Below are positions 2,651-11,682 of a stretch of DNA of 64,000 nucleotides, in pieces. A program made the translations under genes and the position numbers. This stretch comes from Escherichia coli (GTDB lineage Bacteria; Pseudomonadota; Gammaproteobacteria; Enterobacterales; Enterobacteriaceae), in NCBI RefSeq assembly GCF_016903815.1, contig NZ_CP069973.1, one strand, 5' to 3'. The notes beneath the pieces were generated by a model, which saw nothing but the letters and a program-made list of their open reading frames with translations, was not told the DNA's origin and did no database searches. The number at the start of each line of letters is the position of its first letter. The stretch's first letter is position 1.

Positions 2651-2878
2651 ATGCGTTTAATTGTGGTGAGCATCATGGTGACCTTGCTGAGTGGCTGTGG
2701 CAGCATTATTAGTCGCACTATACCGGGGCAGGGGCATGGCAACCAATATTATCCCGGTGTGCAATGGGATGTGCGTGACTCCGCCTGGCGTTATGTCACG
2801 ATCCTTGATCTGCCATTCTCCCTGGTTTTTGATACTTTACTGCTGCCGATCGACATTCATCATGGCCCGTATGAGTGA
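2651..2878 (+). CDS. yceK: Lipoprotein YceK
   Basis: 75-aa ORF with lipoprotein signal and lipobox (LLSGC); matches my memory of K-12 YceK. Confidence 0.85.
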   Translation: MRLIVVSIMVTLLSGCGSIISRTIPGQGHGNQYYPGVQWDVRDSAWRYVTILDLPFSLVFDTLLLPIDIHHGPYE

Positions 2879-3253
2879 TTAACGTTCATCCCACTCATCA
2901 GCTGCTGCGCGTCCTTCCTCGGTATCCAGCGGTGGCTCAAGCTGAAATTCCCCCTCGTCCCATTCATGTAATGTATTCTCTTCCTGCCACTCCTGGCGGA
3001 TCTCTATCTCATCATAGTCGCCATCAAAAACACTTTGCGCGGCTTCACCGCTAAGCATAGGTAAACATTCACCTTCTTCCCCTTCGTCGGCAAAAAACTC
3101 AACTTGCCACATGATGTCGCCGTCCTGCAAAACGTATTTTTGGGCATTGAACTGTTGCACATTCGCATTTTCGGCGTCGATGCCGGGGTTGTCTGCAAGA
3201 AATTCTTCGCGTGCAGCGTCAATGGCTTCTTCAAGCGTTGCGTACATGGTCAT
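2879..3253 (-). CDS. msyB: Acidic protein MsyB
   Basis: Highly acidic 124-aa protein MTMYATLEEAIDAAREEF...; start trimmed by one codon to the second Met of the ORF. Confidence 0.88.
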   Translation of the reverse strand: MTMYATLEEAIDAAREEFLADNPGIDAENANVQQFNAQKYVLQDGDIMWQVEFFADEGEEGECLPMLSGEAAQSVFDGDYDEIEIRQEWQEENTLHEWDEGEFQLEPPLDTEEGRAAADEWDER

Positions 3254-3335
3254 CACGATTCTCCCTTTGAGTTGATGAGGTTTCAGGGAAAAGGATAGCT
3301 GATTCTCCGCTTTTGCAAGTATGAAAGGCGAAAAA

Positions 3336-4562
3336 TCAGTTCGATACCTGGGGTATTCGACGACGACGTAGACTGTTCCATGAATAGACTGCGTTGAATA
3401 ACACTACGCCAGCAGTGACGAGAAATACCGCTCTGAAACCGTAGTTCGCTGAAATCGCTGCTCCCATCAATGGTCCGGTAACATTGCCAATATCACGAAA
3501 CGATTGGTTATAGCTGAAGATACGCCCGGCGATTTGGTTGCTCGAGTTGTAAACCAACAGTGTTTGTACGGCGGGGAGTAGTGCACCATCGGCGGCACCG
3601 AGCAAAAAACGTAAAATCCCAAGTTGTAATGGCGTCTGAACGTAAGACATTGGGATCAATAGCAGTACAGAAAAGATCAGCGCCGTAATCAGGATCTTTT
3701 CGGGTCCGATTCGATCGCCAAGTTTGCCGAGTCGTGGTGCACTCAGCAGAGCCGCCACGCCTGGCACCGAGGCGATCATGCCACTGATAAAGGCGACGTT
3801 ACTGACGTTACCCGCCAGTTCGCGGACATACAGCGTCAGAATGGGGGCAATTGAGCCCGTCGCCACCTGGATGATTAACGTAGTGACAAACAGGCTGAGT
3901 ACCAGTTTCGGGTTTTTAAGTGATGTCACCACTTCCCGCATGTGCAGCATCTCTTTTTTGCTGACCGGCTGGAATTTTTCTCTGATGCAAAACAGGGTGA
4001 CGAAAAAGCAGAGTATGAGCACACTGGCGGTAATAAAGAATACCGGACGTAAGCCGTAGCTATCAGCGAGCAGGCCGCCAGCCATTGGGCCAAGCAACGC
4101 ACCGCTAACGCCGCCTGTGGAGAGCGTCCCCAGCGCCCAGCCGCTTTTATTACGTGGTACTTGTGTGGCGATAAGAGCATTAGCGTTGGGGACAAATCCG
4201 CCAAGTAAACCAAGAAGCGCCCGCAGGATCAAAAACTGCCAGATATTTTGTGCCAGCCCCATCAACACCATCACGATGCCCATGCCGAGGGCAGAGCGTA
4301 ATAGCATGAGTTTTCGGCCTTTACGGTCGGCGAGTCCACCCCAAAACGGTGAGGCGATGGCCGAAAATAAAAATGTAATGCTGAAGACAATACCGGACCA
4401 CATATTCAGGGCGGAGTGACCGGTAACGCCAAGCTGCTCAACGTAGAGGGGTAAGAAGGGCATTACCAGACTGAAGGCGGCACCGGTAAGAAAACAGCCT
4501 AGCCAGGCGACGATCAGGTTTCGTTTCCAGTTTATAGGGGTGTCATTTTCACAGGGTGACAT
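3336..4562 (-). CDS. mdtG: MFS multidrug efflux transporter MdtG (YceE)
   Basis: 408-aa polytopic membrane protein matching MdtG. Confidence 0.92.
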
Positions 4563-6972: not shown

Positions 6973-7548
6973 TTACTTCTGCTGTACGCCTTCCACTGAA
7001 ATAATCAGATCCACTTCCTGAGAAGCTGGACCTAAATCTGTCTTGATATTGAAGTCCTTGAGCTTAATTTTGCCTTCGGCCTCGAAGCCTGCACGTTTAC
7101 CACCCCATGGGTCGTCGCCCTGACCAATTAATTTCGCTTCCAGTGTGACGGGCTTGGTTACGCCATTCAGCGTCAGATCGCCGGTAATATCCAGGTCGTC
7201 ACCGTCTTTCTTCACGCTGGTGGAGGTGAATGTTGCCTGTGGATATTTTGCGGTATTGAGAAAATCCGCACTGCGAAGATGTTTATCGCGTTCGGCGTGG
7301 TTAGTATCGACGCTGGTGGTGTTAATTGTCACATTCACTTTATCGGCAGCTGGATTTTTTTCATCAAAGGTAAAAGTACCGTCGAAATCTTTAAAGGTGC
7401 CGTATAACCAGCTATAGCCAAGGTGCTGTATGCGGAAGTTAACAAAGGCGTGCTGACCTTCTTTGTCAATTTTGTAATCGGCGGCAACCGCTGAACCGGC
7501 AGAGAACATCAGGGAAGCGAAGGTTAAACCAAGCAGGCTTTTTTTCAT
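6973..7548 (-). CDS. yceI: Periplasmic polyisoprenoid-binding protein YceI
   Basis: 191-aa protein with signal peptide; matches YceI. Confidence 0.9.
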
Positions 7549-7551
7549 TTT

Positions 7552-8118
7552 TTATACTCCATAGTCAGATGACGACTTTCCCAGCATGCGCTTCAGAGTG
7601 TCGTCTTTATCGATGAAATGATGCTTCAGGGCCATAAATCCGTGCATAACGGACAGTACTACGACGCTCCACGCGAGCCAAAAATGCAGGGCACCGGCAA
7701 AGTCAGCCTGTGCGCCAGCGTCGGCGAGGGTCGCGGGGACGTCAAACCAGCCAAAAACGCTGATCGGTTTACCATCGGCTGTTGAGATCAGATAGCCGCT
7801 GATGCCGATGGCGAACAGCAATAAGTACAATGCGAGATGTCCAGCCTTTGCGCCAAGACGAGTCATGGGCGAATAACTCTGCAGCGGACCCGGCGGTGGA
7901 GATATGACGCGCCACAGAACGCGAATAACCAGCCCCATCATTAACAAAATACCGATGCTTTTATGCAGTTCGGGTGCTTTGTGATACCAGCCATCGTAAT
8001 AACTGAGCGTGACCATCCACAGACCTAAAGCAAACATGCCGTAGACAATAATTGCGCTTAGCCAATGGAAGGCCGCAGATATAACACCATAGCGTTCAGG
8101 GGTATTTGTGAATGACAT
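7552..8118 (-). CDS. yceJ: Cytochrome b561-family protein YceJ
   Basis: 188-aa membrane protein from the internal Met MSFTNTPERYGV...; upstream extension in the ORF track judged spurious. Confidence 0.88.
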   Translation of the reverse strand: MSFTNTPERYGVISAAFHWLSAIIVYGMFALGLWMVTLSYYDGWYHKAPELHKSIGILLMMGLVIRVLWRVISPPPGPLQSYSPMTRLGAKAGHLALYLLLFAIGISGYLISTADGKPISVFGWFDVPATLADAGAQADFAGALHFWLAWSVVVLSVMHGFMALKHHFIDKDDTLKRMLGKSSSDYGV

Positions 8119-8378
8119 AAGTGCATCCAAAACGAATTTGCGAGAGAAAGAAAATGGCGTGTCGGAGAATGAATTGCAACACAAAAATAACAAATTGAAT
8201 GATATTTATTTTTATTTCAATAATTTTGAATTAATAATGAAAGAATCTTCATAAGTTTAGTGGGTTCAGCATCAGAGATGTCTGGTGAGTGCTGTAGAAG
8301 CAGGAATAATCTCATTCAATTTTTCACGCTAAATGAAAGGGAGATTAAATATTTGTCAGTTTATGTCAGTGCGGAAAA

Positions 8379-8492
8379 CTAAAAATAAAACACATAGATC
8401 AGATCCATAATTGCCAACAATCCCCAGAGAAAAAGATAAAGCATCAGATGCTCGCGAATATTATTGATGAGATAGTGCAACAGCCGACGCAT
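8379..8492 (-). CDS. yceO: Small membrane protein YceO (37 aa)
   Basis: Manual translation of the minus strand gives [37 protein letters not shown] with a TAG stop; below the ORF-track size cutoff; matches the K-12 small protein YceO as I recall it. Confidence 0.65.
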
Positions 8493-8539
8493 TAAATACT
8501 CCTGTAAAAACGGCCTCATTCTGGAGGCCGTAATGATGA

Positions 8540-9658
8540 TTATTGGAAGCGGGAAAGCCTGAATGGCGTCAAATCAAAATCGCTTTTTTTTTCTTGCGCA
8601 AAATCGGCAGCTATTTCCCCTAAAACTGACGCAAATTTAAAACCGTGCCCACTCAGGCCGGTAATGAGCAGTGTATTATCGTGGCCGGGTAGGGTATCGA
8701 TAATAAAATCTTCGTCAGGCGAATTATCATAGGTGCAGGCAGCGCCGTACAGGCAGCAACCGATACCCGGCAATACATTGCGCAAGAACGGGAAGGCTTC
8801 CGAACCATCGCTGACCACTTCCGCAAACGGAACACGTTCATCCGCTGAATGGATAACCTGGCCTCCGTTATGTTTGCCAATCTTCAACGCGTCGTTTTCT
8901 GCCGGAAAACCATAATATTGATCGCCATTGGGCAGTTCACCGGTAAACGCCGGGAATTTATTCTTCACGCTATAGCGACCATCGGCCTGATACCAGGCAA
9001 ATACTTTGCGTACGGGCTGGACAGGCAGCTCCGGGAGCTGGTCTTTTACCCATGTTCCCGCGCAGACAATCGCTTTTTTCGCCTGATAATCACCGTCAGC
9101 CGTTTCAATAGTTACGCCATCATCGTCATGACGAATTGCGGTGACCGGGCAGTTGAACAGCTGCGCACAGCCCGCTTCCTTCGCCAGTTGGATCCAGGTT
9201 TTAATCGCCAGTTCGCTGCGCAAAAAACCGGAATCAGTCTCAAATAAGCCGATGTAGTTGTCCGGGACGCGTATTTCCGGCCAGCGGGCCATAATCCCTT
9301 GCGCATCGAGCTTTTCAACGTTGAGTTGCCATTGTTCGGCGCTGTGGGCGACGTTGGCGAGAAATGTGGAATCAGCCGGGCCAAGGTTAATGACGCCAGA
9401 GCGTACAAAAATGGGATCTTCTTCGTTGTGGCGGGAGAGTTCATCCCACAGCGTTTGCGCGCGAAGAACCAGCGGGACATACTTTTCGCCTTCACCATAA
9501 GCATGGCGAATTAATCGCGTATCGCCGTGGTGGCTGCCGTGTTGATGTGGTGGCATATGGGCGTCGGTCATAAGCACGTTTAAACCGGCGTGGGTTGCAT
9601 AATACCCGGCGGCAGCGCCTACGGAACCGCTGCCAATAATGATGAGATCGTATTTCAT
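8540..9658 (-). CDS. solA: N-methyl-L-tryptophan oxidase SolA
   Basis: 372-aa protein with N-terminal FAD-binding motif [15 protein letters not shown]. Confidence 0.93.
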
Positions 9659-9772
9659 TTTTTTCTCTCTGCTCTCATGGTTTAAGCAGAGTAATTAACT
9701 GAATGCAGATATACAACCCAGAAATGGTAAAGGCACCGGTGAGGTGCCTTTTGGGTGGATGGTCATGTCATG

Positions 9773-10027
9773 TTAATGACGCCGATACTCGTTTACCGGG
9801 AAATCACCGGATTCAATTTTGGCGATTCCTGCTTCTAATATCGAAATAAATTGTCTGGCAACATCAGTGGTTAACCAGAGCGTCTGACCAACTTCAGTCC
9901 CTTCCTGCTCGGACTTATTTGGGGTCTGGTAGTGCAAACGCAACATCAGCGCATCATAGCTATCAACGGTGCTGATGTCCCACCCTACGAGCGGATGAGT
10001 CTGAATGACTTCATTATTTTTTTCCAT
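9773..10027 (-). CDS. bssS: Biofilm regulator BssS
   Basis: 84-aa protein MEKNNEVIQTHPLVGWDISTVDSY... Confidence 0.88.
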   Translation of the reverse strand: MEKNNEVIQTHPLVGWDISTVDSYDALMLRLHYQTPNKSEQEGTEVGQTLWLTTDVARQFISILEAGIAKIESGDFPVNEYRRH

Positions 10028-10279
10028 CATGGCCCCCTAATTCGTGTTACTAGACAACGTTATTCGAGGTTCAATGCGTTTTTATCTGAAGCAACTTCAG
10101 TATACCAATAAGTAAGGGTATTCACCGAATTTTTAAAGGGGGGAACAGATAAATTTTTGCTTTTAAGATTTATATGAACAATAAAACAGCATGTCATTCA
10201 TATTTTTTTAGCATATTGTGCAATTATTTTGAGGAAGTGTAGAAATTTTGTACTCGAAATTTGTAAGTAAAATAAAAAA

Positions 10280-10295
10280 GCCGGGGCGACCCGGC
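10280..10295 (-). terminator. Rho-independent terminator downstream of dinI
   Basis: gccgggg-cgac-cccggc hairpin followed on the minus strand by a T-tract. Confidence 0.6.
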
Positions 10296-10316
10296 AAAAA
10301 CAAAAATCACTGCATA

Positions 10317-10562
10317 TTATTCGCTGACAAACCAGTCATCGGCGCTTTCCCACGTTTCCTGGAGAATTTCGCTAATGCGCTGTTTATCTTCTTTTGTCGC
10401 GCCAATAACCGATAAATTATTCGCTGCGGCATAACGTACCGATACGTGGCCTTCATTATCAGGAAACGCATACTGAATACGGCGGGAAAGTTCGCCAGCC
10501 AGGGCGTCAATAGCCCCAGCTGGCAATGGAGAAGTTTTCGCTATGGTGACTTCAATTCGCAT
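10317..10562 (-). CDS. dinI: DNA damage-inducible protein DinI
   Basis: 81-aa protein MRIEVTIAKTSPLPAGAIDALAGELSRRIQYAF...; SOS box directly upstream. Confidence 0.92.
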   Translation of the reverse strand: MRIEVTIAKTSPLPAGAIDALAGELSRRIQYAFPDNEGHVSVRYAAANNLSVIGATKEDKQRISEILQETWESADDWFVSE

Positions 10563-10583
10563 AATAGCCCCCTGTTGAATATA

Positions 10584-10599
10584 CTGGTTATTTATACAG
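10584..10599 (-). promoter_or_regulatory. LexA (SOS) box of dinI
   Basis: Minus-strand CTGTATAAATAACCAG fits the CTG-N10-CAG LexA consensus, 22 bp upstream of the dinI start. Confidence 0.8.
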
Positions 10600-10635
10600 G
10601 TAAAATAACCTAATGACAACAGGAAGCTACGATTT

Positions 10636-11682
10636 TTATTGTTTAACGGACCAGCGTACCGTTTCCCCGGCGAGGAATGGCACCAGTGTGTCATCAGTCA
10701 GTGCGATGCTTGCAGCAACCTGTTGTTCTTCGCGGACCAGTTCGATGAATGTGTCGTTGACAGGCAAGCCATAGAACTGCGGGCCGTTTACAGAACAGAA
10801 TGCTTCAAAGTGCTGCAGAGCATTCATCTCTTCAAAGACGGTAGCGTAACTGCCCAGCGCGGTTGGGGCATTGAAGCAGCCCGCGCAGCCGCAGCTACTC
10901 TCTTTGCGATGACGTGCATGCGGCGCAGAATCCGTACCGAGGAATACGCGATTAAAACCGCTGGCGACCAGTTCACGCAATGCCTGTTGGTGAATATTGC
11001 GTTTGAGGATGGGTAGACAATACAGATGTGGACGCACGCCACCAACCAGCATATGGTTGCGGTTAAACATCAGATGCTGCGGAGTGATGGTGGCAGCCAG
11101 CCGTTCATTTCCGTTACGGACATAGTCGGCAGCATCTTTGGTGGTGATGTGCTCAAAAACGACTTTCAGCGCAGTCAGGCGCTGGCGCAGCGGTTCCATC
11201 ACGCTTTCAATAAAGCGCGCTTCACGATCAAAAATGTCGATATCTGCATGTGTCACTTCACCATGCACCAGTAACGGCATACCGATTTTTTCCATGCGCT
11301 CAAGTACCGGCATGATTGCGTCAACTGACGTCACGCCGTGACTGGAGTTAGTGGTTGCGTTTGCCGGGTAAAGTTTGGCAGCGGTGAACACGCCTTCGTT
11401 AAATCCACGCTCAAGCTCATTAGGATCTAGTGAATCTGTCAAATAACAGGTCATCAGCGGGGTGAAATCGTGCCCGGCAGGTACGGCGTCAAGAATACGC
11501 TGGCGATACGCCACGGCAGCCTCAACGGTGGTCACGGGCGGAGCCAGATTGGGCATTACGATAGCCCGTCCATAAATTTCGCTGGTATACGGCACGACAG
11601 TTTTTAACATGTCGCCATCGCGGAGGTGAAGGTGCCAGTCGTCTGGGCGGCGGATCTTTAATACCTGGGATGGTGCAGTCAT
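10636..11682 (-). CDS. pyrC: Dihydroorotase PyrC
   Basis: 348-aa protein with metal-binding HLH motif near the N-terminus ([10 protein letters not shown]). Confidence 0.95.

Follow-up and report, generated by a model that had tools for sequence, protein, structure and literature searches.

The minus-strand feature at positions 8379..8492 of the window, i.e., the 64,000-nucleotide stretch of Escherichia coli contig NZ_CP069973.1 (assembly GCF_016903815.1) that was analyzed, is the already known gene yceO, an ordinary gene with nothing new in its identity. Direct translation of the minus strand gave ATG CGT CGG ... TTT TAG, with the ATG at 8490..8492, 37 codons in all and the TAG stop at 8379..8381. 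This retranslation matched exactly the 37-residue product reported in a preliminary description of the DNA, and the name yceO proposed there was borne out by the K-12 gene b1058, by the PGAP product name and by Pfam. The PGAP coding sequence "YceO family protein" (WP_001253418.1, 114 bp) maps exactly to 8379..8492 in four RefSeq records. Against the Pfam profile DUF2770 (PF10968) the protein scored 79.9 bits (E 1.3e-22; gathering threshold 25 bits), residues 1-36 aligning with profile positions 1-36 of 36, so that membership is by score over the full-length profile. Scans of the 37- and 46-residue forms against NCBIfam returned no family. Both sequence and locus are identical to those recorded as YceO b1058, YCEO_ECOLI, PF10968 and WP_001253418.1, and the start call alone differs between these records. 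The coding assignment thus draws on translation, PGAP and Pfam, as well as on the orthologues and the dN/dS ratio described below.

The gene is close to universal in E. coli. Of 5426 complete E. coli genomes, 5424 contain the 346-bp spacer between yceJ and solA, and the label there is "YceO family protein" in nearly every case; the median number of copies of the locus was one per genome (5424 genomes). Among deposited sequences, the 37-residue form occurs on at least 1000 contigs and the 46-residue form likewise on at least 1000; one deposited YceO record carries the name [quoted passage not shown]. Two strains displayed local peculiarities. E. coli NRZ99027-1 (locus L002, 686..799) encodes an R2C variant (MCRLL...) that is labelled "DUF2770 family protein" instead of "YceO family protein", showing that PGAP naming flips on a single substitution. 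E. coli strain 23555 (NZ_CM190133.1; locus L004, 2690..3884) carries an IS5 element between yceO and yceJ, just past the yceO stop codon; its transposase coding sequence lies at 2836..3816 of that locus, the insertion site corresponds approximately to window position 8382, and the yceO coding sequence is intact.

The preliminary description had also remarked that the gene was absent from the supplied track of open reading frames (ORFs) and would be missed by length-filtered annotation. This holds for a size-filtered ORF track but not for standard annotation pipelines, which carry yceO. The ORF lister has a default cutoff of 60 residues, and the absence of the gene from the track follows from this cutoff and has no bearing on annotation. 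When the minimum was set at 20 residues, the lister reported an ORF at 8379..8519 of 46 residues, because the frame extends to an in-frame ATG nine codons upstream. A total of 58 ORFs of at least 20 residues were present in the surrounding 3.5 kb, and a length of 37 codons is therefore, by itself, within chance. What raises the yceO ORF above chance is the Pfam match, its conservation at 52 loci and a dN/dS ratio of approximately 0.15.

Conservation of the reading frame in related genomes, which had been put forward as a check on the gene, was determined by a SolA-anchored scan of 56 loci from species-representative genomes. An ORF of 37-39 codons was present downstream of solA at 52 of these, covering more than 15 enterobacterial genera, including Escherichia, Citrobacter, Salmonella, Intestinirhabdus, Pseudescherichia, Enterobacter and Kosakonia, as well as Leclercia, Yokenella, Pseudocitrobacter, Kluyvera, Pluralibacter, Pseudenterobacter and Siccibacter. 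Selection was assessed on 51 distinct coding sequences of 105 nt. Entropies at codon positions 1, 2 and 3 were 0.74, 0.27 and 1.24 bits, respectively, the pairwise NG86 dN/dS ratio was approximately 0.15 (675 pairs), and stops interrupted one alternative frame in 41 and the other in 42 of the 51 sequences, i.e., in more than 80% in each case. Hence, the frame has been kept, and yceO is a real gene under purifying selection. At the protein level, N11, R13, H15 and D30 were invariant among the 51 syntenic sequences, with R3, L8, E14, Y19, L26 and A27 almost invariant. When distant HMMER homologues were added to give a 31-sequence alignment, N11, R13 and D30 were still invariant and H15 was conserved in more than 90% of sequences. 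The window sequence displays all the hallmarks of the family, namely a length of approximately 37-39 residues and the core M-R-R-[LI]-x-x-[YF]-L-x-N-N-[IV]-R-E-H followed by D30.

The wider range of yceO was established from the solA-anchored locus scan together with a HMMER scan; a word-indexed protein search with the 46-residue query had returned Escherichia and Shigella entries only. Exhaustive searching of 1.84 billion representative proteins with HMMER identified just 38 relatives, and the YceO family is therefore narrow. Its most divergent members, with 46-54% identity, were encoded 47-49 nt past a DAO/solA gene at three distant loci. Several longer HMMER hits (P0108, P0116, P0119-P0121 and P0125) were considered as new architectures and rejected, because these proteins resemble the products of frameshift fusions or chimeras, or else an unrelated repeat protein. 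A few loci departed from the common arrangement. The orthologue of Salmonella enterica subsp. arizonae CCUG 6322T (locus L031, 4160..4270) has a stop in place of the tryptophan at codon 23 and is therefore probably a pseudogene, while that of subsp. diarizonae (L032) is intact. Enterobacter sp. BIGb0383 (L038, 4113..4445) and Shimwellia pseudoproteus (L054) possess solA with no recognizable remnant of yceO. In the Enterobacter locus the terminator hairpin is kept and is followed by an AT-rich spacer and then by yceJ/yceI. Thus, in some lineages yceO is dispensable or was never acquired.

As the preliminary description had it, yceO lies in the intergenic region between yceJ and solA, all three genes being on the minus strand. 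The upstream neighbor solA (8540..9658) is annotated as encoding N-methyl-L-tryptophan oxidase, and the downstream neighbor yceJ (7552..8118), annotated as a cytochrome b561 homologue, begins 260 nt beyond yceO. For yceJ, the mechanical ORF (7552..8193, minus strand) opens at a TTG at 8193 and spans 213 residues, compared with 188 for the RefSeq protein from 8118; the TTG is probably just an in-frame upstream codon and not the real yceJ start. The gene order in most genera is dinI-bssS-solA-yceO-yceJ-yceI, and dinI-bssS-solA-yceO is also found in the window. A position right after solA was observed in the window, at the 52 Enterobacteriaceae loci and at the three distant homologue loci. At the 52 loci the spacing is fairly uniform, yceO usually starting about 50 nt, and at most some 140 nt, past the end of solA. 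The solA-yceO pair occurs without yceJ/yceI in Kluyvera, Pseudocitrobacter, Pluralibacter, Yokenella and a metagenomic contig (L064). As yceO is retained where these genes are absent, it tracks solA and not the cytochrome b561 gene, and a role for YceO as a dedicated partner of YceJ is disfavored on the same grounds.

RNA folding with ViennaRNA placed a GC-rich hairpin, ACGGCCUC-CAGAAU-GAGGCCGU, in the solA-yceO spacer (8510..8531, minus strand). Its 3' arm ends on the first base of a T-run (8506..8510) and is followed by UUUU, with the yceO ATG beginning 17 nt past the hairpin. Every species has a hairpin of -10 to -22 kcal/mol in the 75 nt that precede the yceO start, at a distance of 9-34 nt from the start codon. 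The stem sequences vary, e.g., GGCCUC/GAGGCC, GGCCCCG/CGGGGCC, GGCUCCGG/CCGGAGCC and AGGCACAU/AUGUGCCU, and RNAalifold detected compensatory changes in six of seven pairs. Escherichia and Citrobacter show a clear U-tract and Kluyvera a weak one. The hairpin at 8510..8531 is thus likely to be the intrinsic terminator of solA. The E. coli hairpin went unnoticed in a simple terminator scan, probably because just four U residues are left after the maximal 8-bp stem.

With respect to transcription, a simple promoter scan, which can miss weak or non-sigma-70 promoters, yielded no candidate of the sigma-70 type ahead of yceO on the minus strand. Given that the hairpin would end solA and that no such promoter was found, we infer that yceO mRNA arises mostly from read-through of the solA hairpin, which would explain the very low reported level of YceO. 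A search of positions 7000..11000 against Rfam at a permissive E-value identified no family at yceO except for a sub-threshold Phe_leader match (8504..8596, minus strand; 24.2 bits against a gathering threshold of 55, E 0.71) overlapping the 3' end of solA and the hairpin. We attribute this match to chance similarity brought about by the terminator-like stem.

The records disagree on where translation begins. The "37-codon gene" of the preliminary description agrees with the 114-bp coding sequence of RefSeq/PGAP but not with the K-12 and UniProt length of 46 residues, and the comparative evidence favors 37. The K-12 MG1655 entry for the same locus (yceO/b1058) is 141 bp long (MG1655 1119307-1119447) and begins at an upstream in-frame ATG (8517..8519, minus strand), giving the 46-residue form that UniProt and the experimental papers share. 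Window positions 8492 and 8519, at which the two ATGs begin, correspond to 1119420 and 1119447 of MG1655. The calculated intact mass is 4718.7 Da (4746.7 Da formylated) for 37 residues and 5897.1 Da (5925.1 Da formylated) for 46. A Shine-Dalgarno sequence, AGGAG (8499..8503, minus strand), can be read 6 nt upstream of the ATG at 8492 and is left unpaired in the centroid RNA structure. Of 50 distinct spacers, 45 contain a purine-rich motif resembling a Shine-Dalgarno sequence 5-11 nt ahead of the conserved start. By the same reading of the sequence, no Shine-Dalgarno motif precedes the ATG at 8517..8519, whose A and U form the final two loop bases of the hairpin and whose G is the opening base of the 3' stem. 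The upstream ATG was found only in some Escherichia, including E. coli and E. albertii; E. whittamii and other Escherichia lineages have TTG at that position, and the ATG is absent outside the genus. In many genera an in-frame stop lies 1-8 codons before the conserved methionine, without an alternative start. Finally, the DUF2770 profile, with its 36 positions, opens at the methionine of the 37-residue form.

On the basis of conservation, ribosome-binding-site logic, Pfam and PGAP, the translation start is most likely the ATG at 8492, the 37-codon start being the conserved one, and the 46-residue K-12/UniProt model is probably over-extended by nine codons. It seems unlikely to us that the native E. 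coli product is instead the 46-residue protein from the ATG at 8519, whether alone or beside the 37-residue form. The in-frame codon is indeed present in E. coli and E. albertii, the K-12/UniProt annotation gives 46 residues and an 11-residue peptide of the longer form has been detected, although this peptide came solely from a pBAD plasmid with the 46-residue ORF behind a vector-supplied ribosome-binding site (PMC12529367). Against this, the upstream ATG is partly loop and partly 3' stem in a hairpin whose energy is -10 to -15 kcal/mol, and it lacks a Shine-Dalgarno sequence; other Escherichia have TTG in its place, and genera outside Escherichia lack it, with stops closing the frame ahead of the conserved methionine; the second methionine is where the Pfam profile and every orthologue begin; and PGAP picks the 37-residue start.

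Some variation was seen at the conserved start itself. GTG is the start codon of yceO in C. koseri, in the group of loci L027-L029 and in Leclercia. A TTG-ATG tandem is common in Citrobacter, as at the C. freundii-group loci L012, L016, L021-L023, L025 and L056, and the start may therefore shift by one codon in that group. The conserved start codon of Citrobacter sp. wls619 (L024, 1322) is ATA, with a TTG one codon upstream.

The description of the product as a small hydrophobic protein also holds. The 19-residue Kyte-Doolittle mean reached 2.15 at residues 16-34. The three arginines of the protein (R2, R3 and R13) are all found among its first 13 residues, a stretch that is amphipathic (moment 1.97). 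AlphaFold2, run with the 31-sequence alignment, returned a single helix spanning residues 2-36 with a mean pLDDT of 94.1. In silico, then, YceO has the single bilayer-length hydrophobic segment and the positive-inside asymmetry of a small membrane protein, and it is probably a single-pass inner-membrane helix in the N-in/C-out orientation. The conserved features would suit specific packing against a partner helix. A profile search of the PDB with the YceO family alignment retrieved no relative.

Published work provides evidence that the protein is made. Chromosomally encoded YceO-SPA has been seen by Western blotting and YceO has been detected by top-down MS; the chromosomal level was at least 10,000-fold below that of YceO induced from pBAD with arabinose, and both deletion and overexpression strains exist (PMC12529367). 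Tables in PMC12997748 and PMC8765455 list YceO as an acid-stress small protein, after Hobbs et al. (2010), and the phenotype of the yceO deletion is reported as stress sensitivity. An acid-stress Ribo-seq study classed yceO as a "previously known sORF" without significant regulation (PMC10746267 supplement), and the acid link therefore rests on a mutant screen. Incidental mentions of yceO comprise a hit in a gallium Tn-seq screen, lowered expression within intracellular communities of UPEC and a mutation found in a motility-evolution line. The supplements of the Salmonella small-protein census contained no mention of yceO, and literature searches under the names DUF2770 and b1058 found nothing relevant.

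We consider it very likely that the feature is the known gene yceO, translated from the 37-residue start and probably encoding an inner-membrane helix that would be expressed by read-through and would act via a partner. The sequence comparisons show that the gene is real, evolves under purifying selection and is a member of the DUF2770 family, and that its 37-codon start is the conserved one. Within the model we infer the membrane topology, the read-through expression and the action through a partner, and take translation from the literature. The 37-residue protein would form one long alpha-helix, with its basic N-terminal third (R2, R3, R13 and the motif N10-N11-x-R13-E14-H15) at the cytoplasmic face. 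Residues 16-36, approximately, would cross the inner membrane N-in/C-out, placing the invariant Asp30 near the periplasmic side, in the outer leaflet. Translation would proceed from the ATG at 8492 by way of AGGAG and not from that at 8519, on an mRNA arising mostly from read-through of the hairpin that ends solA, keeping YceO scarce. By analogy with other small membrane proteins, YceO would probably act through helix-helix binding to some larger protein of the inner membrane, with the outcomes for acid-shock survival and biofilm that have been reported.

Two quite different readings were weighed against this model. Type I toxins are typically patchy in distribution, multi-copy and fast-evolving. 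YceO resembles the products of Hok, Ldr, Ibs, TisB, ShoB and DinQ loci in being a short hydrophobic helix under tightly limited expression, and its small size, very weak expression and a start close to a strong hairpin could suggest a type I toxin-like, membrane-damaging peptide that is silenced by RNA structure or by an antisense RNA. We regard this as very improbable. In contrast to those loci, yceO shows a median of one copy per genome and strict synteny with solA in more than 15 genera, evolves under purifying selection (dN/dS 0.15) and, as far as the Rfam search shows, has neither a known antisense RNA nor a known RNA family overlapping it; no toxicity was reported on overexpression from pBAD for 2 h (PMC12529367), and the deletion phenotype is reported as stress sensitivity, not relief. 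Less credible still, and extremely improbable in our view, is a reading in which the ORF serves the downstream yceJ-yceI operon as a regulatory leader or uORF, or has arisen by chance and has no function as a protein. Such a reading could appeal to the position of the ORF upstream of yceJ on the same strand and to a length that is within chance. It is, however, the amino-acid sequence itself that is conserved, with four invariant residues and a dN/dS of 0.15, and tagged YceO accumulates (PMC12529367). As for a leader in particular, yceJ is 260 nt away and yceO is kept where yceJ/yceI are absent.

The preferred reading of YceO as a membrane helix acting via a partner has counterparts among known systems. 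Small membrane proteins modulate larger ones in AcrZ-AcrB, MgtS-MgtA, CydX-CydAB and MgrB-PhoQ, and KdpF is a further example. Like AcrZ, MgtS, CydX, MgrB and KdpF, YceO is shorter than 50 residues and combines one predicted transmembrane helix and a positive cytoplasmic end with low abundance and a stress-related phenotype. On the other hand, it has no sequence relationship to these proteins and is not known to have a partner, and its gene is not in an operon with an obvious membrane-complex partner, its constant neighbor solA encoding a flavoenzyme and yceJ being dispensable for the retention of yceO.

A more specific proposal is that YceO is tied to SolA and not to acid stress generally, acting as a read-through-gated, sub-stoichiometric membrane partner or regulator of the N-methyltryptophan oxidase pathway. 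The tie is suggested because yceO stays shortly after solA throughout, even where yceJ/yceI have been lost, and because its ribosome-binding site directly follows the solA terminator hairpin, so that synthesis could be gated by read-through. SolA carries a Pfam DAO domain and no membrane role is annotated for it. We put this idea forward as a speculative one that is quite unlikely to prove correct.

The discovery value of this locus is small, since practically all E. coli genomes carry an annotation of yceO, Pfam has a family for it, and published studies have tagged the gene, deleted it and overexpressed it. It does illustrate that length-filtered ORF tracks can hide real conserved genes. As a matter of annotation hygiene, the model-strain reference (46 residues) and the pipeline (37 residues) disagree. 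If the 37-residue form is the true one, one of the two YceO peptides used in targeted MS, that of 11 residues, would be absent from the native protein, and overexpression constructs and reagents based on the 46-residue form would carry nine extra residues. What the present analysis adds is evidence that the K-12 start codon is probably placed nine codons too early and a description of the conserved arrangement of terminator hairpin and start site after solA.
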